From positions 316,515-380,514 of the forward strand of contig CBFIDD010000002.1 of the NCBI GenBank assembly GCA_965661285.1: DNA of 64,000 nt. Direction: 5' to 3'. Source of the DNA: Poseidonia sp. (GTDB taxonomy: Archaea; Thermoplasmatota; Poseidoniia; Poseidoniales; Poseidoniaceae). The position numbers and the translations under genes are program-made. The notes under the pieces were generated by a model. The model was not told the origin of the DNA and made no database searches. It saw only the letters and a list, made by a program, of their open reading frames with translations. Below are positions 8,490 to 50,800 of the stretch, one piece after another (within the stretch, counting starts at the first letter, position 1; every line of letters starts with the position of its first letter).

Positions 8490-8515
8490 TGAGGCGTATC
8501 AATCGGTAGCGTCTG

Positions 8516-8587
8516 ACAAGACCCACTGCAAGCCCTCTGATGAGGTCAAAACGAATCAGTGGGTTTGTGCATTGACCCTTTGATTCG
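8516..8587. repeat. left ~72-bp inverted repeat bounding the low-GC cassette
   Basis: 8521-8587 (ACCCACTGCAAGCCCTCTGATGAGGTCAAAACGAATCAGTGGGTTTGTGCATTGACCCTTTGATTCG) matches the reverse complement of 11679-11751 with only a handful of mismatches. Internal hairpin potential (ACCCACTG ... CAGTGGGT). Confidence 0.75.
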
Positions 8588-8611
8588 TTAGTATAACCAT
8601 TGAATCAGCCT

Positions 8612-9799
8612 CTACTTTGCTTTTCGATCTGAATATGAACTCAACCATGCCTCATCAATCATTTCGTTAATCCAATATTTACTTCGTTTTATTATCGTCA
8701 TGAGTTGCCTTCCATGTATTAACTTCAATGGATATCTTAGTTCATGAACCTCTTCTTGTGCTTGTTTTGAGAAAAATGAGGTGGTGACATAAATCCCATA
8801 TTCTCCTCTGTCGAGTCTTGCAACTAAGCGCGATAATTGAACGGGATTAATGTAGTTTGAACTGGCATACCTCTTCACCTCTCCTTTCAATTTAATCTCA
8901 AATCTGAATGGTTCATCAATCATCATTGAACCTATGAAATCAAATCCTCCGTCTCCACTATTCTTGGTTTTTTCTAGATTTTTGAATAAAGTGCCTCCGA
9001 CTTCAAGGAAAAGATCAACGATTATTTGTTCAAAGACATACGGGTTAATTTCATTCAAGCGTTCCAATGCCATCCATTCTGGAGAATTGGTTGGTGGTAA
9101 TTGATCTTCTTTTGTCAAAATTGAATCATTCCAAGCGGTAAGATATGAGTGGGCATTCCTTGATACGTATTCTCTCCAAGCAAGAGGAGATTTGTCCAGT
9201 CGGGAATCAAGTTCCTCATGCTTGCGCCAATTCGTCAACCAATCAATCGCAACCTGTGGGGTATTTAGAATTCGTAAAGTTGCTCTGTAATTCCTAACAG
9301 GTATGTCTCCATCCATGAACCACTCAACGTCTAATTTTTCTAGAATGCACAAACCGTTGAAGCGATTATATCCCGTTCTTTTTGTGAAATGGAGAATGAA
9401 GGAAGGTTGAGTTGAACCGTTGCGGAGGTTTTCATCGAGCGCCTTCAGTACTTTGTTTCCTTTGAAATCATCAAGAGACTTATCTGGGTCTGCAACTGAA
9501 TCGCCCCAGTAATAAATTACACCATTGTGCTGGTCAACAATATCATCCCAAGGTTTAGGAGTATTCGTTTTACCTGAGTGAGTGAACAAAAACACACCGT
9601 CAATTTGCTTCTTTCTTGATGAGTTTGGAGATTTCAATGCTCTAATGCCCCCTGCATTAGTCAACCCGGATTCAGGTAGGTTAACCCAACTCAGAAATTG
9701 GTCTTCCGGATCGTCTTTCCTTTTTGCGTCTCTGTACTCTTTGCCGACCTCAAAGAATTTCCCAGAGCCTGCTGTAATCCAGTTATCTGAACCACTCAT
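8612..9799 (-). CDS. Mrr-catalytic-domain (PD-(D/E)xK) nuclease fusion; candidate modification-dependent (Type IV / MspJI-AspBHI-like) restriction endonuclease with an unassigned N-terminal ~250-aa domain
   Basis: C-terminal 130 aa match the Mrr_cat pattern: FEQIIVDLFLEVGG ... SGDGGFDFIG ... EIKLKGEVKRY ... GIYVTTSFFSKQAQEEV ... LKLIHGRQL (D ... ExK intact). N-terminal domain has no obvious family. Solo gene, no methyltransferase nearby. Low GC. Confidence 0.7.
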   Translation of the reverse strand: MSGSDNWITAGSGKFFEVGKEYRDAKRKDDPEDQFLSWVNLPESGLTNAGGIRALKSPNSSRKKQIDGVFLFTHSGKTNTPKPWDDIVDQHNGVIYYWGDSVADPDKSLDDFKGNKVLKALDENLRNGSTQPSFILHFTKRTGYNRFNGLCILEKLDVEWFMDGDIPVRNYRATLRILNTPQVAIDWLTNWRKHEELDSRLDKSPLAWREYVSRNAHSYLTAWNDSILTKEDQLPPTNSPEWMALERLNEINPYVFEQIIVDLFLEVGGTLFKNLEKTKNSGDGGFDFIGSMMIDEPFRFEIKLKGEVKRYASSNYINPVQLSRLVARLDRGEYGIYVTTSFFSKQAQEEVHELRYPLKLIHGRQLMTIIKRSKYWINEMIDEAWLSSYSDRKAK

Positions 9800-9840
9800 G
9801 AATTCCCCTCAACTGTTGTGGTAATTGAAATTATCACATT

Positions 9841-9925
9841 AATCAGAGGGTCACTCTGATTAGGCCTCAAAGCAGAGGGTACCCACTGCTTACCCATCTG
9901 AGCAAAGGGCGCCCTCTGAAGAATA
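9841..9925. repeat. degenerate third copy / hybrid of the cassette repeat between the nuclease gene and the TetR gene
   Basis: AATCAGAG-GGTCA-CTCTGATT palindrome (9841-9861). TCAAAGCAGAGGG. ACCCACTGCTTACCCATCTGA (cf. ACCCACTGCAAGCCCTCTGAT in the left repeat). GGGCGCCCTCTGAAG. Confidence 0.5.
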
Positions 9926-9935
9926 ATTATCCAAC

Positions 9936-10586
9936 CTAGATCCAACCCTTAAGAATCGTGTGTATACCCGCTTTTAGTTCAACACTCATATCGAGGTTAA
10001 GAAACGTTAAGTCTGGGTGTTTAAGGGCAGATTTGGAAGGGCTTGAGGGGTTTGCCAGAGGATAAAGTCCCAAGGCGAAAGCCAACATCTGTCCAAATGC
10101 TTGAAGGGCATCTTCTAGTCTGGTAAAATGCCCGTTTCTCATTAATGCCTCTGCACCTCTCTGCATGAGTGAGAGTAGATTCAACTTATGTTCAATTAGC
10201 ACTTCAACTGAAACCTCTCGTTCATACAATGCTGGAGTAAGTGAAAAAAGAGAAAGAAAGCGATATTCCTTGAGAAAGATTTTGGTGATGGCACTCGCAA
10301 ACATATCTAAATCGCTTAATTCAAGTTTGGAATCTTCCTCTAATCCGAGAACTACGTCCTCAAAATCGCATAGATGAACATGAAGAAGCAACGATTGGAT
10401 GTTCTCAAAATATCTGTAAATACCGCTCGGTGAAATTCCAACCGAGCTGGCAAGCGGACGCATTCGAAGATCCAGCGGGTCAGTTGTTTTGAGAAGCGTG
10501 CGGACGGCTTCAACAATCGCTCTTTTTCTGACTTCACGATGCTCAGTTGAACGAGCGCGTTGGAAGGGAATCTCTGGGCCAGTCAT
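9936..10586 (-). CDS. TetR/AcrR-family transcriptional regulator
   Basis: N-terminal HTH (RKRAIVEAVRTLLKTTDPLDLRMRPLASSVGISPSGIYRYFENIQSLL). 216 aa. Divergent from an SDR gene. Confidence 0.8.
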   Translation of the reverse strand: MTGPEIPFQRARSTEHREVRKRAIVEAVRTLLKTTDPLDLRMRPLASSVGISPSGIYRYFENIQSLLLHVHLCDFEDVVLGLEEDSKLELSDLDMFASAITKIFLKEYRFLSLFSLTPALYEREVSVEVLIEHKLNLLSLMQRGAEALMRNGHFTRLEDALQAFGQMLAFALGLYPLANPSSPSKSALKHPDLTFLNLDMSVELKAGIHTILKGWI

Positions 10587-10625
10587 GTGAATAACCCCTG
10601 CTCTGGGTGGAGGACACTTGAACTT

Positions 10626-10654
10626 AACGGAACACTGTTTCGTTAAATATATAT
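10626..10654. promoter_or_regulatory. candidate TetR operator palindrome plus TATA-like box in the TetR/SDR divergent intergenic region
   Basis: AACGGAACAcTGTTTCGTT (10626-10644, one mismatch from a perfect palindrome) is immediately followed by TTAAATATATAT. The TATA overlaps the first ATG of the SDR ORF, so the SDR more likely starts at the Met at 10677. Confidence 0.35.
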
Positions 10655-11660
10655 GGAGGATTTGGTTCGGCGAATCATGCCTCGTTCTCTCCGAATTGAC
10701 CCAAGCCTTCGTAACATCGACCTCTCCGGAAAAAGATACGTCATCACCGGTGGCTCAAGCGGCTCAGGACAAGCCACGGTTGAATTCCTTGCAAAGCAGG
10801 GTGCCGAGGTGATCACCACGGGACGAGATCTGGCTCGTGGGCGTCAAAATTTTGAATCCCTACCGCTCGCTGTCCAGGGACGAATCACACTCCTTCATCT
10901 TGATTTAGAAAACATGGAAAGTGTCGAAAAGTTTGCAGCTGAGGTAAACAAAAAGTGGCAGTCGTTTGATGCATTGGTCAACAATGCGGGAGGTGCCCTC
11001 ACGAAAAACGGCACTTTCGAGCTAAACAGAAAAACATACGACAAACAATTTGTCGGCAACCATATAGGGGTATTCCACCTCAGTAACTTACTTCTTCCCG
11101 GGCTTGAAGCCAATGATGGGGCTCGACTCATCAACGTCTCATCCGTCATGCACGACCAGGCGAAAGGTTTGCAGTCGACTCAGGCTCAGATACATTGGGA
11201 TGACATCCATGCCCGCAAGCGCAAGTTCGATGGGTTTGACCAGTATGCTCAATCAAAACTCGCCAACCTCCTTCACGCAAAATCGCTGGCAAGGAAGTAC
11301 GATAAAGACAACATTGCTGTTTTCCCCGTTCACCCAGGGACGATCAGCAAAGGCAGTCGTTTCGGCCGTTCGATGGGACCACTAATGCGCGCAATGATGG
11401 TCCCTCTTAGCATCCTGATGGGACCTATCATGCGCCCCATCACGAAGGAAGACGGCGCTCAGACCACCCTCCACTGCCTGCTTTCCGAGGAAGCTCTGAA
11501 CCACCACGGAGTGTATCACGCTCAAACCGGACTCAAACACAGCGACGGTGTTCGCGGGGGCTGGCCGTACCGGTCAGCCAATCCGTTGTCTCATGACGAA
11601 GCCGCTCAGGACCAATTGTGGAGCCTGAGTGAGGAACTTGTGGCAGAATTGAAAGCCTGA
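10653..11660 (+). CDS. short-chain dehydrogenase/reductase (SDR), retinol-dehydrogenase-like
   Basis: ITGGSSGSGQATVEFLAKQGAEVITTGRD (Rossmann TGxxxGxG). VNNAGG. 335 aa. Probable true start at 10677 (MPRSLR...). Confidence 0.85.
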   Translation: MEDLVRRIMPRSLRIDPSLRNIDLSGKRYVITGGSSGSGQATVEFLAKQGAEVITTGRDLARGRQNFESLPLAVQGRITLLHLDLENMESVEKFAAEVNKKWQSFDALVNNAGGALTKNGTFELNRKTYDKQFVGNHIGVFHLSNLLLPGLEANDGARLINVSSVMHDQAKGLQSTQAQIHWDDIHARKRKFDGFDQYAQSKLANLLHAKSLARKYDKDNIAVFPVHPGTISKGSRFGRSMGPLMRAMMVPLSILMGPIMRPITKEDGAQTTLHCLLSEEALNHHGVYHAQTGLKHSDGVRGGWPYRSANPLSHDEAAQDQLWSLSEELVAELKA

Positions 11661-11678
11661 TTCAATCCACAATTCGTC

Positions 11679-11751
11679 GAATCATAGGGTCAAAGCACAA
11701 ACTCACTGATTCGTTTTGACCCAATCAGAGGGCTTGCAGTGGGTCGAATCA
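11679..11751. repeat. right ~72-bp inverted repeat bounding the low-GC cassette
   Basis: Reverse complement GATTCGACCCACTGCAAGCCCTCTGATTGGGTCAAAACGAATCAGTGAGTTTGTGCTTTGACCCTATGATTCG aligns base-for-base with 8516-8587. An additional palindrome CATCAGAGGGGCCCCTCTGAG lies at 11779-11799. Confidence 0.75.
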
Positions 11752-11808
11752 CTCGCTACCCTGAGATTTGGCAACCCATCAGAGGGGCCCCTCTGAGTCG
11801 TCGCCGTC

Positions 11809-21036: not shown

Positions 21037-21528
21037 ATGGGAGGAGGAGGTACGGCGCCCGCTATGAAGATGAGCGATGTCTTCATCCTGACCGGGCTTA
21101 CCCTACTTCTTGGTGGCCTTTTCCTTCATGCTTGGGTCACCCCCATCGACCACAGCGGTGAAGACCCATCCTACACCAACGGCGCTTCCATGATGAAAGG
21201 CGATGAGTTCGCGTTCAGGGTGACGGTTGAAGCCGAAACCACCCTCCGCATTGTGGTGATGGACGATGAGAACACCATCCTTAGCGCCGAAAATTTCGTG
21301 CTTGCCGCCGGTGAAGAGCACAACGAACGAATCACCATGGAGACATCCGGCTACTACACGTACGAGATTGACACCAAAGGCGTCAATGCAACCATTGAAA
21401 CCGATATTGTGCGGAAGTACATGATCGACATGCTCCCCTTCCCCGTGGGTGCACTCCTCCTCGGCTTTGGATTGTATCAGCGCAAAGAAGTGGATGACGA
21501 GGTGCTGGACGCCGAGTTAGACGCCTGA
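21037..21528 (+). CDS. small bitopic membrane protein, unknown
   Basis: 163 aa. N- and C-terminal hydrophobic helices. Acidic C-terminal tail. Confidence 0.4.
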   Translation: MGGGGTAPAMKMSDVFILTGLTLLLGGLFLHAWVTPIDHSGEDPSYTNGASMMKGDEFAFRVTVEAETTLRIVVMDDENTILSAENFVLAAGEEHNERITMETSGYYTYEIDTKGVNATIETDIVRKYMIDMLPFPVGALLLGFGLYQRKEVDDEVLDAELDA

Positions 21529-22971
21529 CCACGTCACATCCTCTGGCTCGTCAAGCGCCTCGATGCCCTCGAGCCGCAATGAACCATCGACATTGACACC
21601 GAGGAGGTTGGATTCTTGACCTCTATAGAGAAGAGGTCCAAGCAGTTCTTCGCCGTGCAGAACCGCTTGTTCAACCTCGTCAGAGGAATCCAACCGTGGA
21701 AGAAGCGCCAGTCGTTCAAACAACGAAGCGACCATGGCATGAAGTTGAGGATGAAGGTCGGCTGAGCAGACTTGATGACCGAGGTCCTGAAGACTGCCAT
21801 GTTCGTCACCGCTGGCGTCAAGATTCAAGCCGATGCCCAGGATCACATGATGGGTCTCGCCTTGAGATATCGCCTCAAAGAGAACGCCACCTGCTTTTTT
21901 CATGTGGCCGTCCGATGAGCGAACGAACAGGTCGTTGGGCCATTTCAAGCACACATCTCCTGCCATTGCACCGCTCATGAACCGGACCATACGGGCCATG
22001 GCCTCTCCAACCCGTAACTGGTCTGCCGTAACGTGAGACCACCCTTGACCCGAATGGACAAGCCACGAGGCCATGAACGCCCCCGGGTAGGATTGCCATG
22101 TTCGTCCTCGTCGACCTCGCCCGGTGGTTTGTTTGTCCGCACGAACGGAGGCCCCGACAGCACCTGCGAACGCCATGACATCGTCGTTCGTACTCTCGGT
22201 GTGTGAGCGATACACCACGGGAGCGTCGACGTAGGGTTTCCACACCGCAATCACCGACAAGTGCTCTTCGTCCGCAAACGAGCGGGTGGCAACACAACGA
22301 GCAGCCATGCCAGCCGCCCACGCCATTTCGCACGCCGTATCACCCACGCCTTTGGAAGAAACCGTCATGTAAGCAACACCGTGCGGCGAAAGGAGGTTCG
22401 AGGAAGCCAGCCGGTGAAGCATCCGAACGTACAGACCTGTTTGGTCGTTGTCCGTGAGTGCCGCTTCCTCAAAGGGCCCCAGTTTCGCTCCCCGCAACGC
22501 ATCACCACCCAAATAAGGCGTGTTCCAAACGACCACGTCGTAGGTTTGATCGCCGCCCCATTGCGCGGACAAGCCGTCATCGGTGGGCCCTGGACCCCCC
22601 TCGAGAACGGTCGCACGGAGGCCATGCTGCTCGAAGTGGGCACGCGTGCAGGCAACAGCAAACGGATTGACATCGCACGCAGTGATAAGACAACCCAATC
22701 GCGCGGCGTAAAGGGAGAGCACACCCGAACCACAACCGATTTCCAGCCATCGCGTTTTAGGCGTCAAGCGCTGCGATGTCAGGACGGAAGCGAGGAGGTC
22801 GGTGTCCTCCCGAGGAGGATAAACTGTGGGGGGCACGGACATCGAGAAGACCTCACCGTTTGGCGCCTTCCAATCAACCAACGTTGCCGCCCGGACAAGG
22901 CGCTCAATCTCGGCCTCCGCATCAGCGGCATGGAAGGATTCATCACCACTCATGCACCGTCCAAAACGCAA
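21517..22971 (-). CDS. birA: bifunctional fusion: N-terminal HemK/Mtq2-like SAM-dependent methyltransferase + C-terminal biotin--[acetyl-CoA-carboxylase] ligase (BirA)
   Basis: MTase half: LEIGCGSGVLSLYAARLG (motif I), DVNP, NTPY (NPPY-type motif IV). BirA half: QTTGRGRRGRTWQS and KWPNDLF. 484 aa single ORF. Confidence 0.75.
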   Translation of the reverse strand: MRFGRCMSGDESFHAADAEAEIERLVRAATLVDWKAPNGEVFSMSVPPTVYPPREDTDLLASVLTSQRLTPKTRWLEIGCGSGVLSLYAARLGCLITACDVNPFAVACTRAHFEQHGLRATVLEGGPGPTDDGLSAQWGGDQTYDVVVWNTPYLGGDALRGAKLGPFEEAALTDNDQTGLYVRMLHRLASSNLLSPHGVAYMTVSSKGVGDTACEMAWAAGMAARCVATRSFADEEHLSVIAVWKPYVDAPVVYRSHTESTNDDVMAFAGAVGASVRADKQTTGRGRRGRTWQSYPGAFMASWLVHSGQGWSHVTADQLRVGEAMARMVRFMSGAMAGDVCLKWPNDLFVRSSDGHMKKAGGVLFEAISQGETHHVILGIGLNLDASGDEHGSLQDLGHQVCSADLHPQLHAMVASLFERLALLPRLDSSDEVEQAVLHGEELLGPLLYRGQESNLLGVNVDGSLRLEGIEALDEPEDVTWSGV

Positions 22972-32352: not shown

Positions 32353-32652
32353 ATGGATCTAAGCCGACAACTGAAGAACGCAATCGCAACAGGAAACCTG
32401 TTGTTTGGACAACGACAAACCAAGGACGCCTGCGCAAACGGGAACGCCAAAATGGTCATTGTGGCAGCCAACTGCCCCGAAGATTACACGACGGCCCTGC
32501 GTGCTGCCCACCCAGAAGTGAGCATGCATCGCGCACGCATGGTGAACCGAGAACTGGGTATTGCCTGTGGTAAACCCTTCTCCGTTTCCACCATCACCGT
32601 CCTCGACGCTGGCGATAGCGACTTGATGGCCCTCGAGAGCAACGTTGAGTGA
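32353..32652 (+). CDS. rpl30e: ribosomal protein L30e
   Basis: MDLSRQLKNAIATGNLLFGQRQTKDACANGNAKMVIVAANCPED is a typical L30e N-terminus. Conserved position after rpoA''. Confidence 0.85.
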   Translation: MDLSRQLKNAIATGNLLFGQRQTKDACANGNAKMVIVAANCPEDYTTALRAAHPEVSMHRARMVNRELGIACGKPFSVSTITVLDAGDSDLMALESNVE

Positions 32653-32704
32653 ACCCTCATCAACGGGACAAAGGCTTGATGGCCTTTGGTGCACACGACA
32701 AACC

Positions 32705-35700
32705 ATGCGAGTGAATCGTGTTACTCTAGCGGCGACCCTGACGGCCCTGCTCTTGTCCAGCCTTCTGCTGAGTGCAGCCGTCAACCCCGCTCAAGAACAA
32801 CCGCTATTGGATGGAGAAGAACACATCGTCCACACCTCAGCACGGTCGACCTCAGCCGAAGTGTTCCTCTCGAGCGGAGGTTCAACCACACACGACGAAT
32901 TTTCAGGAGCCATCGCTGCATCCGACAACGGCTACGTGGTCGCAGGTGACGTGAATTCATCAGCGTCAACCCTCACCTTTGGCCCACATTCCTACACACC
33001 AACCTCTCCATACAGCAACGGCAACGATTTCTTCGTGGCTTCGTTGAACAACAACGGGGGATGGAATTACCTCGTCGGCGCCGACCACACCCAAGGTGGC
33101 GTTTCGTTCATGTCGGATGTGACCTCGCACGCCGGGAATGCCATCGTGGCCGGTTACATGTACGGGCCGGTTGATTTTGGGCCAACGACCCTCTCTTCAG
33201 CCGTGCAGTTTGACGCCTTTGTGGCCCAGACCGATGCCGCAGGAAATTGGATGTGGGCCAAAGGGTTCCAAACCCTCCCGAACTCATCCACCGACTCGAG
33301 CATACCGCAAGCCATCACCGTTGACCAGGTAGGCGACGTGATCGTCGCAGGATATTTCTCCGGTGAAACTGACTTTGGCGGCACCACCATCAACGTCTCA
33401 AATCCCGAAGTGTTCATCGCGAAATTGGACGGAGCGAACGGCGCTCTCAAGTGGGTCGTCAGTGGAGGAGGCATCGGTACGCAGCAGGTCACGGATGTCG
33501 TGGTGGATCCAAGTGGAACGATTCATGTTTCGGGCGTAACGCAAAACAACATACGTTTTGGAACACAAAGTTACAACACCATCGGAACAACTGATTCGTT
33601 TATTGTCAGGGTTTCAAATTCGGGCGCAATCCTCGGCATCAGCGGCTATGGCATCCCCAACCAGGCTGTATCACTTACCAACATGGCCGTGGACAAGAAT
33701 GCTGATCTCTACATCGGCGGCTCGTTTGAAGGTACAATGGCGAAAAACGGATGGTCCATCACCGCCAATAAAGGTGGTTCGGATTTATTTTTCATCAAGG
33801 AAGGAGCTACCCCAAACAATCAGTGGGCCGTTATCGGTGGCACCAACGCAGCCGACAGCTTGCGAGGTATGGAGGTCACATCGAAAGGCGAGCTTGTCTT
33901 CACCACGTTTTTCATCAGTTCGACCTTTACCGGCGGCACCAAAGGAGCGACGCCTACCAGCAGTAGTTGGTACAATAATCAAGCCATTGATGCTCTGATG
34001 GGTGGATTGACAAATACAGGTGGTTGGTCCTGGCTGGATGTTACGTCCAGCAACGCTCTCGAGCTTGGATGGGGATTAGCCTTGAATTCCAGCGATATTG
34101 CCACCGTCGTAGGCTCCTACGCAGGACCATCAGGTAGCGATACCATCACGAAAGGCAGCACAAGCGTCACCACGACGGGGGGTTGGGATAACTTTGTTTG
34201 GGCATTGGATCCGAGCATGAAAGCTGACAGCGACAACGACGGCGTGCCAGACGTGAACGATAACTGCCCCAGCGATGTCAACCCGCTTCAGGAAAACACC
34301 GACGGGGACGCACAGGGTGATGCATGCGATTCGGATGATGACAACGATGGCATCACGGACAATTCTCCGGACAACTGCCCCAGAGGTGGAGCGGCGAATT
34401 GGGGCTCCACACAGAACTTTAACGACCCGGCCAACTCCACCGATTGGGACCGAGATGGATGCAAGGACGATGTCGAAGACGCAGACATGGACAACGACGG
34501 CGTGGAAAACGATGTTGACCTTTGCCCACGCACGTCCTACCAACCGCCTCGCCCGACCTGGGTTTCTGATGAAATTACGGATGTTGACAGTGATGGTTGC
34601 CGAGATGCGGACGAGGATACCGATGATGACGGCGACGGATTTGAGGACGTCAGCGATGACTGCCCAACGGTGATTGGTAACTCAACCCTCGGTGAGGAAG
34701 GGTGCGTTGACAACGACGGCGATGGTTGGTCAAACAATTTCGATGACTGTCCTAACGATTTCGGCAACTCAACGCTGGGCGGCAAGAACGCCTGCCCCGA
34801 CATGGACGGCGATGGTTGGGCCGACGTTGACGACGCCTTTATCGAAGACCCAACACAATGGTCGGACGCTGACGGCGACGGCTACGGCGACAATCCCGAA
34901 GGAACCACGCCGGACGATTGCCCGGCGGCGGTTGGCACCTCGGTTTTGGACCGCCTCGGCTGTTTGGACACCGACGGCGATGGGTATTCTGACCCCGATA
35001 GCATGTGGGACGCAGAATCCGGCGCTGACGCCTTTATCGAGGACACAACGCAATGGTCCGACTTCGACGGCGACGGCTACGGCGACAACTATGCGAACGA
35101 TACATGGACGGACCGCAACCCGTCTTGGCCCGGCGAATATCGAGACGATGTCGTGCTCCAAGACGCCTGCCCCACGCAAGAGGGCACATCGTGGCAAAAC
35201 GGCATGATCGGTTGCCCGGACCAAGACGGTGATGGATGGTACAACCTCCAAGACGCCTTCCCAAACGACGCCACACAGTGGTCTGACGGTGACGGTGACG
35301 GCTACGGCGACAACGCTTCTGGAAACGATGCCGACCAGTGTCCAGACATCGCTGGCACCTCCACCACCGACCGGTTGGGTTGTGTTGATAGCGATGATGA
35401 CGGATATTCTGACCCCGACATCACATGGACACCGGCTCAAGGTGCTGACGCCTTCATGGCCGACCCTACGCAGTGGGCTGACCAGGACAACGATTTCTTC
35501 GGCGATAATCCCGCTGGCGACCGCCCCGATGACTGCCCGACCGTTCGTGGCACCTCCTTCATCGACCGCTTTGGTTGCGAGGACAGCGATGGCGATGGCC
35601 TCTCCGATGCCACCCCTGAATGGACGCTTGAACAAGGAGCAGATGCATGTCCCCTGGCTTACGGGAACTCGAGTGCTGACCGAATTGGCTGCGTGGACAC

Positions 35701-36187
35701 CGACGGGGACAACTACTCTGACCCAACACCTGATTATCGTGCAGAAGACGGTGCTGACGCCTATCCACAAGACCCGACGCGCTGGATTCTCGAACCGGAG
35801 GAAGAAGGCGCGCTCTTCGCCTCGAGCAACGTGCTCGTCGGCGGTGGCGTTGGACTCGTGGTGCTTCTCGCCCTGATCGGATTCTTCATGCGTGGACGTC
35901 GGCCAAAGAGCGACAACGCTGCTTGGGAGATACCGCCAACCGTCGGAATGCCGGACTTCAACGCTCAACCCGCAGCCATTTCGCCGGGATACGCAGCGCC
36001 GGTCGCCATGCCCGACTTCAACGCTCAACCCGCCCAGGCCACTGTGGCTGCTCAACCCGCCTATGCACCGCCCGTGGCACAGCCTGACCCCGCTCGGGAG
36101 TACTACAACAGCCTCATTGCACAGGGGTACCCACACGATGATGCCGTGCGATATACTAAGCAATACTTCAACCAGTTCCACGGTTGA
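32705..36187 (+). CDS. large type-I membrane-anchored surface protein: signal peptide, SBBP-type beta-propeller repeats, ~20 thrombospondin type-3-like Ca-binding repeats, TM, Pro-rich cytoplasmic tail
   Basis: Start set at MRVNRVTLAATLTALLLSSLLLSAAV (signal). Propeller-like units (GDVIVAGYFSGETDFGG, DSFIVRVSNSG). Repeated DxDxDGxxD units (DTDGDGYSD, DQDGDGW, DGDGDGYGDN). TM LVGGGVGLVVLLALIGFF. Tail with tandem MPDFNAQPA. Confidence 0.7.
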   Translation: MRVNRVTLAATLTALLLSSLLLSAAVNPAQEQPLLDGEEHIVHTSARSTSAEVFLSSGGSTTHDEFSGAIAASDNGYVVAGDVNSSASTLTFGPHSYTPTSPYSNGNDFFVASLNNNGGWNYLVGADHTQGGVSFMSDVTSHAGNAIVAGYMYGPVDFGPTTLSSAVQFDAFVAQTDAAGNWMWAKGFQTLPNSSTDSSIPQAITVDQVGDVIVAGYFSGETDFGGTTINVSNPEVFIAKLDGANGALKWVVSGGGIGTQQVTDVVVDPSGTIHVSGVTQNNIRFGTQSYNTIGTTDSFIVRVSNSGAILGISGYGIPNQAVSLTNMAVDKNADLYIGGSFEGTMAKNGWSITANKGGSDLFFIKEGATPNNQWAVIGGTNAADSLRGMEVTSKGELVFTTFFISSTFTGGTKGATPTSSSWYNNQAIDALMGGLTNTGGWSWLDVTSSNALELGWGLALNSSDIATVVGSYAGPSGSDTITKGSTSVTTTGGWDNFVWALDPSMKADSDNDGVPDVNDNCPSDVNPLQENTDGDAQGDACDSDDDNDGITDNSPDNCPRGGAANWGSTQNFNDPANSTDWDRDGCKDDVEDADMDNDGVENDVDLCPRTSYQPPRPTWVSDEITDVDSDGCRDADEDTDDDGDGFEDVSDDCPTVIGNSTLGEEGCVDNDGDGWSNNFDDCPNDFGNSTLGGKNACPDMDGDGWADVDDAFIEDPTQWSDADGDGYGDNPEGTTPDDCPAAVGTSVLDRLGCLDTDGDGYSDPDSMWDAESGADAFIEDTTQWSDFDGDGYGDNYANDTWTDRNPSWPGEYRDDVVLQDACPTQEGTSWQNGMIGCPDQDGDGWYNLQDAFPNDATQWSDGDGDGYGDNASGNDADQCPDIAGTSTTDRLGCVDSDDDGYSDPDITWTPAQGADAFMADPTQWADQDNDFFGDNPAGDRPDDCPTVRGTSFIDRFGCEDSDGDGLSDATPEWTLEQGADACPLAYGNSSADRIGCVDTDGDNYSDPTPDYRAEDGADAYPQDPTRWILEPEEEGALFASSNVLVGGGVGLVVLLALIGFFMRGRRPKSDNAAWEIPPTVGMPDFNAQPAAISPGYAAPVAMPDFNAQPAQATVAAQPAYAPPVAQPDPAREYYNSLIAQGYPHDDAVRYTKQYFNQFHG
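34850..35320 (+). repeat. coding near-tandem DNA repeats (~45-bp units) inside the TSP3 region
   Basis: CAATGGTCGGACGCTGACGGCGACGGCTACGGCGACAAT at 34852, a near-identical copy at 35047 and another at 35272. Encodes (T)QWSDxDGDGYGDN. Confidence 0.5.
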
Positions 36188-41880: not shown

Positions 41881-44800
41881 TCACCGCTGCGGGATGGCTT
41901 GCATTTGAGCGATTTCACCGCTCATTCGCGTCAGTGCTTGGACAGCGACCTCTTGGTGTTGAGGGCCCATCTCTTCTCGACTGTACCGGGCCATCTCAAA
42001 CGTGTTGTCGAGGGCGGTCAGAGCATCCTCTGACACGCCCTGCAGCGCTTGGCGGATGGCGAATTCGAATTCCCGAACGGTTTCGAAGTCACGTCGGAGG
42101 AAGCCACGCTGCTGCAGCAGACCGCAGAGGTCCTGATAGCAGGTGAAGATGGCTTCTCGTGTTGCATCCCCGGCCGCCAACAACTCGGCGGTGTAAGCGA
42201 AGACCTCGGCCGCATCCTTGAGCAGGTCGTCGGCGAGTTGCTTTCGTCGGTACATCACGACGCCACCGGCGATGAGCGCGGCGAGCGCAAGCACGAGGAG
42301 GTAGGACCACCACGGTGTTTCCGCTTGTTCTTCTGCAAATTCGTATTGCACAGCAAAGCCTTCACTTCGCAGTGATTCAAAGCCCTGAAGGCTTTGGGCT
42401 GAAAGGCGAGGATCGTTCACGATGATATCCATGGTCAACTGGCCCCAAACATCAGCATCGCCGTATGGCGGGTCAGCATCGAACACAAAGGTGGCTTTCC
42501 CGGTTTCATCGGTTTGAGCACCACGGTTGGCGAGTTGGGATTGGTTGGCATCGTAGAGATAAATGACAACATCAATCCCCGGCAAGCCCGTACCCGTATC
42601 TTCGGCGATAACGGTGAGGGAACCGCCCACGTCTTCTTGTTCGTCCTCAACCACCTCGAGGAGGTCTACGGTGATGACGGCGTCGACCTGTACAAACACC
42701 GTTTGACTGATGCTGGCAGCGTTGAGGTAAAGGGAATCGTTTCGAGCGACGTCAAGGAAGAAATACTGCGAACCGACTTCGAGCCAATACGGCGCCGTTG
42801 CGGTCAGCGAGAAGTTTCCGTTTGACCACACGACGCTGCTCTCTGTGAAGCAGCGTGCTCCTTCCCGACCACCCTCACAATCCGAACCGTTCCCAATGCT
42901 CAGCAGGAGGTTCTCAAAGACCTCACCTGAGCCTCCGATCTCCTGCACAGAACCCGAATAGAAGACGGGTTCAAACACACTATCAGAGCGGGTGACGACG
43001 TTCGTGTTTGAAGTTGGGTCGACTTGAATCAACAGGTCAGCCCATACCCGAACACTGCTTTCTACGTCGGCTGGAAGATGCGCCTGCGTCCCTCCAAAGA
43101 CCACGCCGATGGTGTGTTCGCCCCGGGACAAGTCCATGGTTGCAGGCACCGTTGCGCTCCACGCACCATCAGCACCGGTGGTGGTCGTGAAGAGCGTGTT
43201 TCCGTCGAGTTGGACGAGCAATTCGAATCCGACCAAACCGTCGCGGTCAACGGTGTCGAAGTCGTACAGGCGGCCACTCAATTCCCATGTGTCGCCACGG
43301 GTGGCATCAATACCATCGTCGAACACCAAGGTGACCCATGAACGATGGGAGAGGAAGAACGAGACGTTTCCTTCCCCGGCACGGTAATATCCTTGTGGGG
43401 GTGATTCTGCGAACAAGGTTCTGTTCCCGAAGTCAAAGATGTCGGGAACGACCCAGTCATAGGTGAACGCACCGTTTTGGTCGGTGGTCAAGGTGGAGAT
43501 GACGATGCCTTCCACGACCAGTTGAACTTCGTGGTTTGCAACGCCCACGAGTTGATTGTCAACCACCGAACCGGTGATGGTCACGGTTTGGTTCACCGCC
43601 ACCGGCGAGGAAATATCCACCGTTACGAGGACTGGACTGAAGATTTCCCACAAACCACTGGCGTTGCTGGGGAGGTAAGCCACGGTCCCGGTGAATCGGG
43701 TTTCCAGAACCACTGGACCAAGCGGAGCGTCTGCGGGCACAGGATGGACCGCAGAAAACTCGCCAAGTTCGTCCGTCGTCGTGTTGGTCAGCCACTGACC
43801 ACCCAGCCATACCTCGATGGTCAGGTTCGGTAGCGGGTTGTCAACCACATCGAGAAGACGGCCTTGGATGGTGATCGTTGTTTCTCGGTCGGCATCGCCT
43901 GTTGCGGTCAACAGGAGAATCTTCGTGGGTACGCTAACGTTGAATTCCACCATCGCAGAGCTGGGTTGGTAGTATTCGGGATTGTTGGTGTCCCCGTAGC
44001 CGACAGGGTCAACCCATTCACGACCACCACGGAACTCCACCGAGATTTGGTGGGGACCTGCAGCCGTGTCTTCTGGGAGCGCGTACGAAAGGGTGTATGC
44101 ACCCGAGATGTTGTCCGTTTCAATGCTGGCAACGGGAACGCCATCGATGAGAAGGTGCACCACGGCAGTGGAAGGTACACCGTTTCGTTGCAAGACCAAG
44201 CCCAGGTCGTCCAACAGCGTGCCGTTCACGACCAACATGTCGCCAGCCACCAGCACCGTTGGTGCTTCGGTGATGGTAACCTCGGTCGCACCGAGGACGA
44301 CAAAGGACGAACTGGCGTTGGTTCCAATGATGCCCGTGGTGCCGGCGATTCCGGTGTAGTCCGCATGGATGCCGGTCGGGCCGACGCTCATGTTGGCTGG
44401 GACGGTCAGGTTGCCCCAAGCAGAACCGTTGGAAGCCGTCAAGACCGTGATTTGGACGGGTGAAGCATCGTTCAGCGTCGCCGTGAGCGAGACGAGGACG
44501 CTTTGATTAGCCAGCGGGAGGCCTTGGTTGTCCCGGAGGAGAATCGAGAACTCAACGATGTCTCCCCTTTCGGTTCGGTCGTTCAACGAGGGTTGACCGA
44601 TACCGTCAAGTGCGGGGAGAATGAAATTCATGACCGAGAACCCACGAGAATCGAACGAGGTGTTGTTGGTCGAGCCAACGTAATAGTTGACACTCGGGAT
44701 GTAGGTGGCTTCCATCACGTGGCTACCAGCGGCGAAGGTTTCACTGAGGCGAATCGTGGCGTTCCAATACCCATCAGCACCGACGGCACCGCCTGTGGCG

Positions 44801-47800
44801 GTGAAGCCAGTCGGTTGGCCGTCAATGGAGAACAACACGTTGGCGTTCGCCAAGACGGAGTTGTCCCGCTCAACCAGTCCCGAGCCGTTGTCGGAGGTGA
44901 TTTGCCCGCTGATGTTGAAGGAGGTTCCTGCAACGGGGTTGGCTGCGATGCTGTCAACGACCATGAAAGTCAACGAGCGCACGGTGATGCTGGTCAGGTT
45001 GGCGCTGGTTGAAAGGAGGTCGGTGGAACCGTTGAACACCATCTGAACCACGATGAGGCCCAGAGGATGGTCATAGGGCACGTTGTAGGTGAAGTTGGCA
45101 AACCCTTCTCCGTCCGTGGTTTGTGGCAGGAGCCATGTTTCGTGGAATTGCAGCGCCACCTCGTAATTCGAGAGAGGAGTAAACAAGTCTGAGGCTTCGA
45201 CAAGTTGCGCTGACATGTTGATGTCGTTTCCACGGTTGATGACCACGGCATTCAACGGCTGGAGGTTCTCGAGGCGAGAGACGCCCATGACCTGGATGGG
45301 CGATTGCGCCGTGGCGGTGAGATAGAACGGCGAGGACTCGTTGACGACGGTGACCACCAGCGTGTGCGGGCCACGGGTCGTACCGTTGCCGGCCGTGTCG
45401 GTTGGCACGGTCATGTTGAAACTCCCGTTGTTGGTTGTGGCGTAGTTGCTCAAGAGCAACTCTTCGGGGTTTTCTAGCCAGAACACGTTCAGCCTGACGG
45501 CGGAAATGAGTGGACGGGTTGCGTTCTCAGCGTCTTCAACCTGCCCGACGACGTTGAACGGGACGCCTGCCGTTACCGTACTTGGCACAGAGATGAGCGA
45601 GATATCGCTGGTGACTTGCACGGTCACGTTGATCACAGTCAAATTACCGTAGCGGCGCGAGTTACCTTCACTAAGAGCTGCTGTGAGGTCGTCCTGAACA
45701 ACGATGCCGACGTCGTAGAACCCGGGTGCAATGCCCGACGGTGTGAAGTCGAACGTGGAGTTTCCTTCGCCGTTTGAGACCACCGTTCCAAGGCTTTGGT
45801 TTGACTTACCGTAATCCCAGACATAGTCAACGCTTGCTCCGCTGATGTTGGAGTTGTCCGCAATGTCGGTGATCTTCGCCGTGAATGAAACCGTGTTGTT
45901 CATCTCCACGATGTAGGATGAGCGTTCGGCCTCCACCACAACCTCGGTGATGATCCCACCCAGCGTGGATATTTGTGCTGGGGGTGCAGGGGGGACGGAC
46001 GTATCCACAAAGGCGTAGTATGCGCCGCCCGCAGGCGCTTGACTGACGAAGTCAAAGTCAAGAATGAATTCATAAGCGTCTGAACGGAGGTTCATCGGCA
46101 TCCTGATAGGGATATCAAAGGCACCTGTGCTGTTGTTCAAGGTTGATTGCGCGATGTCGATGGGCCCTTGTTCGGTGAACAGGCTGACACTGATGAGCGT
46201 GGTGTTGTTGAGGACCGGCGTGAGATAGACCGCATCAAAAACATCGCCGACAAGTCGGGTCGAGTTGCCCATGAATGTCCAATCCTGCCCGATGGAAAGA
46301 TTCCATCCGATGTTGGCCATGACACGTAGGGAACCGAGTCCAATTGAGGGTTGGTAAAACGATGAACCGTTGAAGGAGATGCCGATGGGGTAGTCGCCCG
46401 AGCGTAGGTTGGCATCGAGAGGGATCACAATTTCCAACACATCGGTTTCCGGATCCACGGTGGTGTTGAACCACGACCCATTGAAGGTGAAATCGTAATT
46501 GCCGAAGATTTCAACGCCGGCGCCCACGCCCCGATGGTCGTTGATCTGCACACTGACAAAAGCATCCTGTCCACGCACCTGTGATGACTCCTGGACCTCA
46601 AACGTCAGCAAGCCTCGGAGGAAGTACGGGGGGTCGACCGTCAAGTTAGCGTCGTCCGTTGCTGGCAGCGTTGAGGGGAAGAAACGCAATCGCGTCTCGA
46701 TAGCGCCGGCTGCTACACCAACGTTGGTTGGCATGGGATACTGAACGGTGAAATTCCCGGTGACACTTTGATTGAACAACTCCACCCAAACATTTCCGGA
46801 ATCCAAGGCCCGAATGGCAAACTGTAGGTTCCCTGTCAGAGCCGTTGGCGTTGGGCCGAGGGACAGGGCACTTCCGTTCACCCAAACGTCATCACCGAGG
46901 AGGAAAACGCTCCTGTTGCTGGTCAGAGGACCTTCGATGGTGGCCGTTAGATTTGGGGCCTCGGTGACGTTGAAGGTAATTGAGGTCGTGGTCGGGTTGA
47001 GATGGAAGAGAGCGGGTGTTGAACCTGGAACGGAGGCATCTTGCCAGCCTGAGAATCCAAGGGTCGCCGATAACGGACCGAGCGTCTCGGCCTCGCTCAA
47101 GTTGATCGAGATGCTCCAGGAGCCACTGATGTCGGTTTGTGCAGTGAGATTTTGCGCTCCGTCAACTGAAGAAGTGTACGACAGCCACACGGTTTGATTT
47201 GGCAGATTGGAGATTTCATCAATCGGTTCATTCGCCAGAGCCAAGCGGCCCTCGAGAACGGTTGTGGCGCCCGCGCCGACAACCGGGGTGTTGATGGCCA
47301 AGGGTGCGGTGTGGACGATGGTGGTGTTCTCGGTCAAATTGACGTAGCCTTCGAAAATAACGCCATCATGCGAAACATAACCGGATTGACGGTGTTCGAT
47401 GACGATGTTGTGCATACCGGGTGCACTGGGTGCGTCGGGGAAGCCGATCATGCTGAAATTGCCGTTGGGGTCAGTGATGTTTTCCTCAAGCAGGAGTGAA
47501 AGGTCAGCGCCTGGACCAGGGACAAAGGGTGCATCACTTACGGGTGAGAGGTAAGCGAACACACGAATATTGGATGCCGGAGTGCCGTTGGCGGCATACC
47601 TCAACTGCCCTGACACCGAGATGCTCTCGGTACCGTCCCGAGCAACGGTGAACGTTGAGATGGTTTGGTTAACGACCTCGATCTCCTCAGCTGGTGGGCA
47701 CGGGTCAAAGGCAATCCATCCGAGGTCGGTGTTTCCGTTGGCGCTGTTTTGCTGCAGTCGAACCTCCGACCACGTGGCGGCGTCCGAGGCGTAGACGGCA

Positions 47801-50800
47801 TAACCTTCGCCTGTCCATGTGCCTCCGATGTAGCCCGTCACCTGACGAGCAGGAAGCCCAGCAAGACGAGCCATGGTCACGAAGGCCGTGTTAAACTCAC
47901 GACACGAACCCTCTTTCACGGCTTCAACCACATTGAGGGTGACGTCCATCGGACTCATGGTTCCCGAACCGTTGAAGTTACGCTTGAACTCGGTCGTAGC
48001 ATTGCCGTTGGTGAGGAAGTCTTCCAGGGCAAGCGCCGTATTGTAAGCATCCGTTGCCCCTGCTTCGGCAATGACAGCGGCCGTGACGTTATTCACGTAT
48101 GAGAAGGCCGAAGAAGAGTCGGTAAACTGAGGGTCGACAAGCAGCTCGTAAGGGAAGCCTTGACCGGGGACGGTCGTTGACGCCAAGTTTGCCCAATCAA
48201 AGTAATACTCAGGTTGTTCGTACAAGACCTGCTCTACAGAACCAGCAACCAGCGAGAGCATGTGCGTATCGTTCGACCTTGAGATGTTGGCTGAGGTTTC
48301 GAAGACGAATGAGATGTTGGAATAATATGCAGGAGCAGGGATTTGCCCTGTCGTTATGGGGCGGTTGAATTGAAGGTTCCACTGGACGGTTGAGTTGGCA
48401 AGGGAAATCGGTGCGAGGTGAGTAAAGTTGCTCATGGGAACAACGACCGCCTCCGAGGGATGAACGCTGTCGAGGTGCGCGTAGGTGCTTCCGGTGTAGA
48501 AGTCATTGGTGATGGTGCGCCACCGATGGTCGCCGTTGAGATCGACGACTCCCGAGGTATTGTTTGCGAAAAAGACAACATCATCCGACATGATGTCATC
48601 GCTGGGGTCAAACACATCAAAGGGCGCGCCTATGCAATCAAAAACCCAAAATGCATCAGGACACTCATCACCGTCAAGCATCCCACCACCGTCTGTATCG
48701 GGGTTGGTCCAGTCGGTTCCGGTTTGATTCTCAACGGCATCGGGCAATCCATCACCGTCAAAGTCGGCGGGTTGAATATCATCAGAAGGATCGTTTTGCG
48801 GGTTCGTTCCGTCAAAGTATTCACTGCGGTCATCCACGCCCCCCTGGTCGGTATCGAACGCGTTGGGAGCTGTCACCCAAACATCTTGGGAGCCGTTGGT
48901 GATGCCGATGTAAATCAAATCACAGCCAGTGGTGTTCTCAAAGTAGTTGTTGAGTCCGTCGGCGTCATCGTCCAAGAGATTTGAACACGGCTGATTGGGA
49001 TCGGTGTTGTCCTGAACTTCGTCAAAGTCATTCACGCCGTCAGCATCGCTGTCGGCGATGCTGGGATTGGAGAACCATCCAAAGGTCCCGAGAAGTTCTT
49101 GCCAGTCTGCCAGACCATCACCGTCGGTGTCCTCGTAATCGTCGTCGCAATACTGCTGCGTTGTGCTGATTGTTCCTGAATTCGTGGCAGCCGTGTGGCA
49201 AAATGAACCGTTGCGATTTGCTACCTGGGTCGCCACGCCCGAGGGCCCGTTGGAAACACCCTGCAGAATGTTGGCAACCACAGTCGCGTAGGCAAAACTT
49301 TCCCATGTTCCGGATACGTTGTACCAACCAACGCCCCCTGCGGGGTTGAAACCCGAGCCGTTTCCTACTTCGACCCTGCTGGCGCTGAGTTCCTGCACGA
49401 AGGTGGTCTCAAAGTTCACAAGTGAATCGCAAGGATCCGTACCGTGGCTGATGTTTCGTTCCTGCCCGTCGTTGATGCCGCCAAAGTCCGTGTCGGCCAC
49501 ATTCCACAGCGTACACGTCAGGTTTTCCTCCCAGTTCTGTATGCCGTCCTGGTCTTCGTCTCCTGAATCCTCACGGCGTGTGGGGTCCGTCTCACCGGCA
49601 TCCAACACACCGTTGAAGTTGGTGTCTTCCTCGCCGTCATCAAAAGCATCCCCGTCGGTGTTGTTGTTGCGCGGGTCGCTGGCTTGGGCAGGGTTGCCGT
49701 AAGCACCGTTCACCTCGATACCGTCGCTGATCCCGTCGCTGTCGGTGTCCGAAGACGTTGGATCGGTCAGCAACGTAAAGGCTTCGTACGAATCGTTCAA
49801 CCCGTCGCCGTCGGTGTCTGCCCTCTGCGGATCTGTCGAGGTGATACCGTCAACCTCAGCGGTAAATGTGGCACAACCACCCGGTCCAATGCCTTGGACT
49901 GGGTCGCAGGGCGAGGTGGTCTCGGTGACGATGCCATCGGGGCCGTTGCGGAAACAGGGCGAAGAGCCGCACATGGTCGTCCATGTCGGGTTGACGTACT
50001 CGAGGAGGTTGTTCAGGCCATCACCGTCGGGGTCGCCGTTTGGACCGTCAGCGTTGGAGGGCGAGGTGGCGTTCAAGCCGTTAGCGGCTTCCCAACCGTC
50101 GGGCATGCCGTCGCCGTCGGTGTCCCAACCTGCGGGGTCTTCATCGATGACGCCGTCGCCATCATCGTCATCCGATAGACAATCGGCATCGCCGTCGTTA
50201 TCCGAGTCCGCCGAGTCGACAAATCCGTCTTTATCATCATCAAATCCATTGGCGCAAATATTCCCGACGGGGTCCTCGTCGCAGAGGATGATCGAGCCCG
50301 TGCCGTCGGAACCTGCCGCACCGCATGCGGGTTGGTTGAACTGCATGGCGTCTTCCTCGTTCCAGTCGTTCACGGGAACGGTGCCGTTCCACCAAACACC
50401 GTTGTCCAGGACAGAAGCGGTGTTGGTGTTGTCCCAACCGCTGGGTTGGAGGTAGAGGTATTCTTGCAAATTGGACATGCCGTCGCCATCCGGGTCAGCG
50501 ACTGCGCCATCGGCACCGGTGGACGACAACGGGTCGAGGCCGTACTTCCACTCCCAGCCATCGGGCAAGCCGTCGTTGTCCGAGTCGGGGTCGTTGGGTT
50601 GGGTGTTCATGAGGTACTCAAGGCCGTACGTGAGACCATCACCGTCCTGGTCGGATGCTGCTTGAACATCAACGACCGTGTACTGAATGGAGGCGAGGGT
50701 GGAGAGGACCATCAAGAGGGTGAGTGAGAGCGACTTGAGCGCTTTTTTCCGCTCTGCGAGGGCTGGTCGAATCGCGGCCGCATTGGAATTCGAGCCTGTC

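Follow-up and report, generated by a model that had tools for sequence, protein, structure and literature searches.

A 395 residue protein encoded in the chromosome of a Marine Group II (Poseidoniales) archaeon is very probably a solo restriction endonuclease of the MspJI/AspBHI family, carried as accessory cargo within a strain-variable, repeat-bounded insert; its action is predicted here by homology to characterized enzymes, and the insert that carries it may be moved in trans. Judged from its sequence and structural model, the protein appears to be a routine additional member of this known family, and the genomic vehicle is more useful than the gene itself and worth its own follow-up.

The window, by which we mean the whole 64-kb stretch of DNA that was analyzed, is core archaeal chromosome, with genes for a split RNA polymerase A'/A'' as well as subunits B and H, FtsZ, a 2-oxoacid dehydrogenase complex, ribonucleotide reductase, glutamate dehydrogenase and an XPD-like helicase. 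Proteins encoded by the flanking genes are found, identical, in many marine metagenome contigs (TARA samples included), and an Rfam scan of the window at gathering thresholds returned two tRNAs only. Features of the insert are listed in Table 1.

Table 1. Features of the restriction gene and of the insert that carries it (window coordinates).
Feature	Position	Strand	Basis
Strain-variable 3.25-kb insert, GC 0.45 vs 0.57 in flanks, interrupting a GGG-TA-CCC palindrome	8509..11756		Comparison with locus L011
Left repeat copy; 5' terminus at 8509 after TA at 8507-8508; 3' end abuts stop of restriction gene	8499..8611	+	Inverted repeat; nhmmer E=3.9e-28; L011 junction
Putative modification-dependent restriction endonuclease gene, 395 aa, MspJI/AspBHI family (Type IIM / Type IV-like)	8612..9799	-	ORF; Pfam; PADLOC; PDB phmmer; AlphaFold2; Foldseek
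Mrr-like PD-(D/E)XK nuclease domain, residues 249-369, D287-X19-E307-V-K309	8693..9055	-	PF04471; alignment
Predicted SRA-like 5mC/5hmC-reading domain, residues 32-215, pocket W84/D86/Y97/D100	9155..9706	-	PF18062; alignment; Foldseek
Spacer from TetR gene stop to restriction gene start, three small palindromes of ATCAGAGGG/CCCTCTGAT type	9800..9935	-	Sequence read against flank consensus
TetR-family regulator, co-cargo, no functional tie to the restriction gene	9936..10586	-	PF17929 (6.5e-19), PF00440
SDR (short-chain dehydrogenase/reductase), co-cargo, divergent from the TetR gene	10653..11660	+	PF00106 (4.6e-29)
Right repeat copy, inverted; 5' terminus at 11756, then TA at 11757-11758; 3' end abuts SDR stop	11661..11758	-	Inverted repeat; L011 junction; nhmmer E=1.6e-25

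Family assignment and predicted action of the restriction enzyme

The open reading frame is intact, and its product contains the motifs GDGGFDFIG (with D283 and D287), GEVKRY (E307, K309) and IYYWGDS, as well as YYWGDSVADPDK, which had been quoted in the original prediction. That prediction, made before any database search, described a C-terminal Mrr_cat nuclease of the PD-(D/E)xK type behind approximately 250 unassigned residues, and proposed an SRA-like reader, as in MspJI and AspBHI, within a candidate modification-dependent restriction gene. The nuclease is borne out by Pfam (residues 249-369, Mrr_cat, PF04471, E=9.7e-15), and careful alignment finds the catalytic residues D287, E307 and K309 kept. 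The N-terminal region, by contrast, already belongs to a curated family: residues 32-215 match RE_AspBHI_N (PF18062, E=1.4e-24, 87.1 bits where the cut-off is 27, spanning profile positions 5-184 of 185), which agrees with the proposed kind of reader. All 120 of the homologues listed have this two-domain architecture, and relatives at 96% and 83% identity are full length. The best PADLOC model is mREase_II (PDLC03203, 'Type II methyl-directed restriction enzyme', E=7.4e-39), in which residues 46-387 align with positions 39-387 of the 393 in the profile, likewise in favor of a modification-dependent restriction enzyme; no NCBIfam model matches the protein.

Sequence and structure comparisons lead to the same enzymes. 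In a phmmer search of PDB the only significant matches were AspBHI (4oc8, 5.5e-20) and MspJI (4f0p, 1.1e-18), with the reader domain of LpnPI (4rzl) matching weakly (E=0.017). An AlphaFold2 model, given 62 homologues as input, has a pLDDT of 90.2 and a pTM of 0.78; compared with PDB by Foldseek it retrieves MspJI, then AspBHI and LpnPI, then SRA domains (ScoMcrA, SUVH5, KRYPTONITE, UHRF2). Superposition on MspJI (4f0p_C) gives a TM score of 0.75 over 434 alignment columns, and is full length for chains with the same domain arrangement. The reader domain matches the N-domain of AspBHI (4oc8_C, E=1.1e-12), LpnPI (4rzl, 1.8e-11) and the SRA domain of SUVH5, and the N-terminal domain taken alone likewise has structural matches to LpnPI and the SUVH5/UHRF2 SRA domains; the predicted fold is SRA-like.

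The residues that carry function in characterized members are retained. In phmmer alignments D86, Y97 and D100 correspond to D71, Y82 and D85 of AspBHI, each of which yields an inactive enzyme when mutated to alanine (PMC3946040), and W84, D86, Y97 and D100 correspond to W101, D103, Y114 and D117 of MspJI, which in the co-crystal stack on the flipped 5mC, hydrogen bond to its N3/N4 and touch its methyl group (PMC4231741). The nuclease residues D287, E307 and K309 align with AspBHI D282, E303 and K305, its 'DX20EAK' motif (PMC3946040), with a spacing from D to E of X19 here vs X20 in AspBHI. No substitution is seen at W84, D86, Y97, D100 or K309 across the 62-sequence homologue alignment; D287 and E307 are each kept in at least 90% of sequences.

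AspBHI (4OC8), MspJI (4F0P/4F0Q/4R28) and LpnPI (4RZL, reader) represent a known Type IIM family with the same Pfam domains in the same order. MspJI and AspBHI are similar in size to the present protein (388-456 aa vs 395 aa) and share with it the 5mC pocket residues, a D-X19/20-(E/Q)-X-K motif and the want of a partner methylase; they differ from it in sequence (~23-24% identity), in their specificity loops, and in host, which here is a Marine Group II archaeon and not a bacterium, the archaeal enzyme being known from sequence and model. The sequence-specificity loops, Loop-2B and Loop-B3, vary across the family (PMC3946040). Because identity to the characterized enzymes is only 23-24%, neither the recognition sequence nor the cleavage distance is predictable. 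Because the N-terminal domain is already a curated Pfam family and the protein an ordinary member, the novelty of the gene is low. One homologue, at 62% identity, lies in a defense island alongside a C5-methylase, Z1, DUF4420, HATPase_c_3 and a resolvase.

We infer from these homologies a specificity for 5mC/5hmC, the cleavage geometry and an antiviral role. The reader domain would flip 5mC or 5hmC into its pocket, the Mrr-type nuclease (D287, E307, K309) would cleave the two strands at a set distance on the 3' side of the modified base, and the enzyme would probably act as a homotetramer; the family model is one of cleavage solely at 5mC/5hmC, at N12/N16 3' of the modified base, by a homotetramer (PMC3946040, PMC3479186, PMC4231741). 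Such an enzyme would need no cognate methylase, because it would attack modified foreign DNA, and its host would be expected to lack the methylation pattern that it recognizes. The original prediction had remarked on the lack of an adjacent methyltransferase, and a Pfam scan of 27 ORFs of the 64-kb window, which contains 13 further ORFs of at least 110 aa outside the scan, returned no DNA methyltransferase.

Other readings of the protein are less probable. E. coli Mrr and classical Type IV Mrr-like enzymes have the Mrr_cat PD-(D/E)XK domain and a modification-dependent logic in common with it, with an Mrr_N winged-helix N-terminus where the present protein has the SRA-like RE_AspBHI_N; Mrr_N is absent from the Pfam scan of the 395-aa protein at E<=0.1. 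That absence, the almost end-to-end PF18062 match and the full-length matches to AspBHI and MspJI in both sequence and structure refute a generic Mrr-type Type IV enzyme with a new, unclassified N-terminal reader, to which we give virtually no credence even though the original prediction could not name the N-terminal domain and NCBIfam has no model for it. The gene is horizontally acquired and lies in a variable region, as might a decaying or domesticated remnant devoid of restriction activity; its full length (PADLOC profile positions 39-387 of 393), intact motif residues, confident structure model and full-length relatives at 96% and 83% identity make this very unlikely. It is improbable, too, that this family member reads some modification or context other than 5mC/5hmC, such as glucosylated hmC, 4mC or a different hypermodified pyrimidine from the viruses of marine archaea. 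The low identity to characterized members (~23-24%) and the lack of family-wide conservation of Loop-2B and Loop-B3 (PMC3946040) would leave room for it; retention of D86 (hydrogen bond to cytosine N3/N4), W84 and Y97 (stacking) and D100 (contact with the 5-methyl group) argues against it.

The insert, its empty site and its co-cargo

The restriction gene is poor in GC (0.399), as is the insert as a whole (0.453), compared with the 5 kb on either side (0.565-0.569). An 83-nt inverted repeat, its arms (8505-8587 and 11678-11760) 88% complementary, brackets the cassette; the window has no other long inverted repeat of this kind. A related locus, L011, lacks exactly this insert: its flanks are 99% identical to those of the window, and a 95-aa gene (the left flanking gene, in its ATG-start, 95-aa version) is followed directly by a 936-aa gene, the two flanks joining as CAATCGGTACCCTGTGATTTGG with a clean GGTACC junction. 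The palindrome that the insert breaks, ...ATCAATCGG-TA-CCCTGTGAT..., is intact there. The empty site reads ...CAATCGG-TA-CCCTGTGATTTGG..., the left junction in the window ...CAATCGG-TA-GCGTCTGAC... and the right junction ...CACTCGC-TA-CCCTGAGATTTGG...; TA flanks the insert at each end and is present once in the empty site. Therefore positions 8509-11756 plus one TA constitute extra DNA at the center of a GGTACC-centered palindrome, which has a core gene on each side.

These observations uphold the description of a low-GC, repeat-bounded cassette given in the original prediction, and the precise presence/absence polymorphism against L011 supports its being mobile. The restriction gene is not alone in the cassette, as had been supposed; the TetR and SDR genes share the insert. 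An operator-like palindrome, TAACGGAACACTGTTTCGTTA, lies within the 66-nt divergent TetR-SDR spacer, and a palindrome in the spacer between the TetR and restriction genes, AAGCAGTGGGTACCCTCTGCTT (9870-9891), resembles an unoccupied GGG-TA-CCC target. Nothing resembling a transposase was found in the insert, nor was a recombinase found in the window cassette or, by Pfam, among the 27 ORFs of the window that were scanned.

Other loci have different occupants at this site. Small ORFs (83-181 aa) take the corresponding intergenic spot in L003-L010, and L012-L015 have an SDR/TetR pair there, ~70% identical and oppositely oriented, with no restriction gene between the two genes. In L013 another repeat copy comes after this pair, and then the 3' end of a restriction gene encoding 99% of the same amino acids. 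The window arrangement cannot be derived from that of L013 by one inversion, and the SDR/TetR copies are only ~70% identical in DNA. A 1.5-kb contig (L059) contains an 83%-identical restriction gene, with the repeat just past its stop codon and in the same relative orientation as in the window.

A Poseidoniales repeat family and an associated serine recombinase

The bounding repeat, of ~85-120 nt, is found almost exclusively in Poseidoniales: of 40 exact-core matches in a genome collection, about 35 were Poseidoniales MAGs, which, with the archaeal genes of the window, places the host in Marine Group II and probably in the Poseidoniaceae. Searched with a profile of 36 copies, the 158 loci that were fetched yield 225 copies; 51 of these loci have between two and five, both direct and inverted. 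Because 54 copies lie no more than 100 nt from a contig end, the repeat is suggested to break assemblies. Its start is sharp, TA|G(C/G)(G/C). In 18 outward-facing pairs, 1.1-3.3 kb apart, the outer flanks nearly always read ...GGG|TA|G... at both ends; GGG outside TA at both ends indicates insertion into GGG-TA-CCC palindromes. Four loci have a pair of copies meeting head to head (...CACTCGC-TA-GGCTATGAC..., joints reading CGC-TA-GSC), as would be seen had both ends of a cassette been linked to each other via a single TA. Repeats often bracket small cargo genes; the cargo between or beside them consists mainly of small proteins with lipoprotein-type signal peptides, with pentapeptide-repeat proteins, TetR regulators and dehydrogenases among the cargo as well. 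Direct arrays or unbalanced sets of repeats are common (L012, L082, L140).

Attempts to place the repeat in a known class were negative. A permissive Rfam scan of its left arm gave sub-threshold noise only (Chlorobi-RRM, 19 bits vs 45; Hammerhead_3, 12.7 vs 48.5; C/D-box models), and a CUGAUGA-like string is not kept between copies, so that we rejected a known RNA. RNAalifold on the 36 copies predicts 13 pairs with no compensatory changes, a test made uninformative by the high conservation of the element. A viral origin was rejected for lack of matches among IMG/VR viral contigs, as were distinct left- and right-end subtypes, since the combination shared by the window and L074 is not found in other pairs. 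A literature search returned no description of such a repeat or cassette system in Marine Group II, which, the coverage of that search being incomplete, is weak evidence of novelty.

A serine recombinase of 262 aa is a recurrent neighbor of the repeat. Its Resolvase catalytic domain is N-terminal (residues 14-165, 2.3e-26) and is followed by a fragment of a Recombinase domain. It occurs in 12 repeat-bearing loci, at 94-100% identity in most: in two of them it is enclosed by the outward-facing pair (2.7 kb in L074, 2.46 kb in L114), and in the other 10 it is beside repeats. Its best family matches, all below curated cut-offs, are to the N-terminal half of CcrB, that of XisF and the catalytic domain of TP901-1 integrase. 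Membership in the IS607 family was rejected, as the domain order is not that of a MerR-like HTH followed by a C-terminal catalytic domain and the IS607 model of NCBIfam gives only 21.5 bits where its cut-off is 110. Homologues form more than 790 clusters, mostly on 1-2-kb contigs. The association was also examined in reverse, from 65-84%-identical homologues on long contigs chosen without reference to the repeat; 2 of 3 independent loci have diverged repeats at a distance of 1.1-1.7 kb, and the homologue in L182 is accompanied by only a weak repeat match.

Possible routes of cassette movement and their implications

Serine recombinases act on inverted half-sites flanking a central overlap of 2 bp, where the strands are exchanged; a palindromic overlap such as TA removes polarity, so that insertion would be possible in either orientation. 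We infer that the cassette may be mobilized in trans by the 262-aa enzyme, with strand exchange at the central TA; this idea fits because the empty site has a single TA, TA is present at the junctions and head-to-head joints, and orientations are mixed. More broadly, we tentatively propose, with somewhat less than even confidence, that the restriction gene is cargo of an undescribed, Poseidoniales-wide cassette system in which the repeats are hybrid sites left by a miniature, large-serine-recombinase-like enzyme. The 262-aa enzyme would insert circular cassettes at the central TA of intergenic GGG-TA-CCC palindromes, in either orientation given the palindromic crossover, and defense genes, surface lipoproteins and small metabolic modules would thereby be shuffled among strains. 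Direct arrays and unbalanced repeat sets, as in L012, L082 and L140, are not explained by simple integration and excision, and no circular junction with cassette cargo was observed.

Homologous or microhomology-mediated recombination between scattered intergenic repeats and palindromes could instead account for the gain and loss of cassettes, the repeat being a passive REP/MITE-like or terminator-associated element. The repeats are indeed intergenic and beside stop codons, similar small palindromes are found throughout intergenic DNA, orientations are mixed and direct arrays exist, and the window cassette has no recombinase of its own, all of which make passive recombination plausible. It is a poor fit to a repeat whose 5' terminus is base-precise and always abuts TA, head-to-head joints and the 18 GGG-TA pairs included; the exact restoration of the empty site and the recurrence of a near-identical serine recombinase beside the repeats also count against it, and we consider it somewhat unlikely. 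Long terminal inverted repeats, together with a TA at each end of the insert vs one TA in the empty site, would suit a non-autonomous derivative of a DDE transposon (an IS630/Tc1-mariner-like mobile insertion cassette) that duplicates its TA target. This origin we judge decidedly improbable, as the ten recurrent neighbor families that were scanned include no DDE transposase, single repeats and direct arrays are common, and the target is a specific palindrome and not any TA.

For the proposed serine-recombinase cassette system, SCCmec (CcrAB) and Tn4451/Tn5397 (TnpX/TndX), which use large serine recombinases with a 2-bp crossover, offer a comparison for the cassette, not for the gene. Likenesses are a serine recombinase with its best, though sub-cut-off, matches in CcrB, XisF and TP901-1 integrase, one central dinucleotide shared by the empty site and both junctions, abutted-end joints resembling a circle or attP, and cargo unrelated to mobility. 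The present system differs in that its recombinase has only 262 aa and falls below every curated cut-off, its repeats are 85-120 nt long and highly conserved, many cassettes have no recombinase, and arrays are of mixed orientation. Integrons (attC/IntI), described in Archaea (PMC9668308), are similar in their arrays of small, mostly uncharacterized cargo genes, defense genes included, and in the structured repeat of ~100 nt that separates them; here no tyrosine IntI was found, orientations are mixed and the associated recombinase is of the serine type. An integron attC reading was rejected on the last two grounds and because the repeat, by inspection, has no GTTRRRY core. The text of the archaeal integron paper makes no mention of Poseidoniales (PMC9668308).

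The gene adds one more member, archaeal and marine, to a family that already serves as a laboratory tool for mapping 5mC, and finding it here suggests that Marine Group II archaea encounter invaders whose cytosines are modified. The locus supplies an exact empty/occupied pair and base-precise termini for a Poseidoniales repeat that probably breaks metagenome assemblies, and it points to a candidate recombinase. If confirmed, the proposed system would provide a compact serine recombinase with defined sites and would explain how flexible genes, defense genes included, move in an uncultured, globally abundant archaeal lineage. If true, it would be a serine-recombinase analogue of integrons in one of the ocean's most abundant archaeal groups.

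The strain-variable insertion site

The 95-aa gene and the 936-aa Fer4/CCG gene flank an intergenic hotspot that varies among strains; in the window it holds the 3.25-kb cassette of restriction endonuclease (RE), TetR and SDR genes. One strain (L011) has nothing at this site, and loci L003-L010 have unrelated small ORFs there, including a lipoprotein-like 181-aa ORF in L008 with diverged inverted repeats on both sides. The stretch from the TetR stop to the RE start (9800-9935, -) contains three small palindromes in tandem, all of the ATCAGAGGG/CCCTCTGAT type, and a similar one follows the 936-aa gene (11770-11805); these may be terminator or REP-like hairpins of the lineage, as well as preferred insertion targets. 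Within the cassette, the divergent TetR/SDR spacer (10587-10652) contains the operator-like palindrome TAACGGAACACTGTTTCGTTA as well as a TATA-like, AT-rich box immediately 5' of the SDR start codon. TetR/SDR is a self-contained regulator-enzyme module with no relation to the RE.

Coordinates of features in the window and in fetched loci
Feature	Location	Strand	Remark
Insertion spot	window 8490-8508 / 11757-11808		compared with L003-L018
Repeat copies	window 8499-8611 and 11661-11758; also loci L019-L179
Head-to-head repeat joints	L060 ~835-850; L083 ~108-123; L106 ~116-130; L155 ~860-874
Serine recombinase gene, 262 aa	L061 752-1540; L074 1653-2441; L114 2164-2952	L074 and L114, -	9 further loci
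Defence island	L002 6022-13433		contig with 62%-identical RE P0003
484-aa protein	window 21517-22971	-	methyltransferase and ligase domains
Very large ORFs, 1180 and 2977 aa	window 32645-36187 and 41881-50814

Other proteins encoded in the window

The 484-aa protein joins a methyltransferase domain of the small-molecule/protein type (MTS/PrmA-like) to a biotin/lipoate ligase domain; the protein is no DNA methylase. Internal direct repeats in the two very large ORFs encode acidic, calcium-binding-like motifs of the DGDGYGD type, similar to thrombospondin type 3 repeats, and their products are probably surface proteins.

The bounding repeat and its candidate recombinase

The repeat (~85-120 nt) is Poseidoniales-specific, with a rough consensus of (TA)G[CGAGTGATTCGA/GCTATGACAAAGC/CGTCTGACAAGA]CCCACTGCRAGCCCTCTGATKRGGTCAAAACGAATCAGTGGGTTTGTGCATTGACCCTTTGAT. 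We counted 225 copies across 158 fetched loci, many of them at contig ends; no Rfam match to the repeat and no covariation within it were found. One full copy occurs on a contig labelled as a Salipiger bermudensis MAG (L036), which, because it carries this archaeal repeat, is probably a mis-binned Poseidoniales contig. At four loci copies abut head-to-head through a single TA (...CACTCGC-TA-GGCTATGAC...), joints that could be attP-like or could mark tandem cassettes.

In the L002 defence island, the RE homologue P0003 neighbours HATPase_c_3, Z1, DUF4420, a C5 DNA methylase and a 284-aa resolvase, the last 36% identical to a 262-aa Poseidoniales serine recombinase. The latter, composed of a Resolvase domain at the N-terminus and a Recombinase domain fragment, is 94-100% identical among most of the 12 contigs that encode it; its homologues form more than 790 clusters, chiefly from 1-2-kb contigs. 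The repeat lies near its gene on all 12 contigs, and this recombinase is a candidate for mobilising the cassettes.
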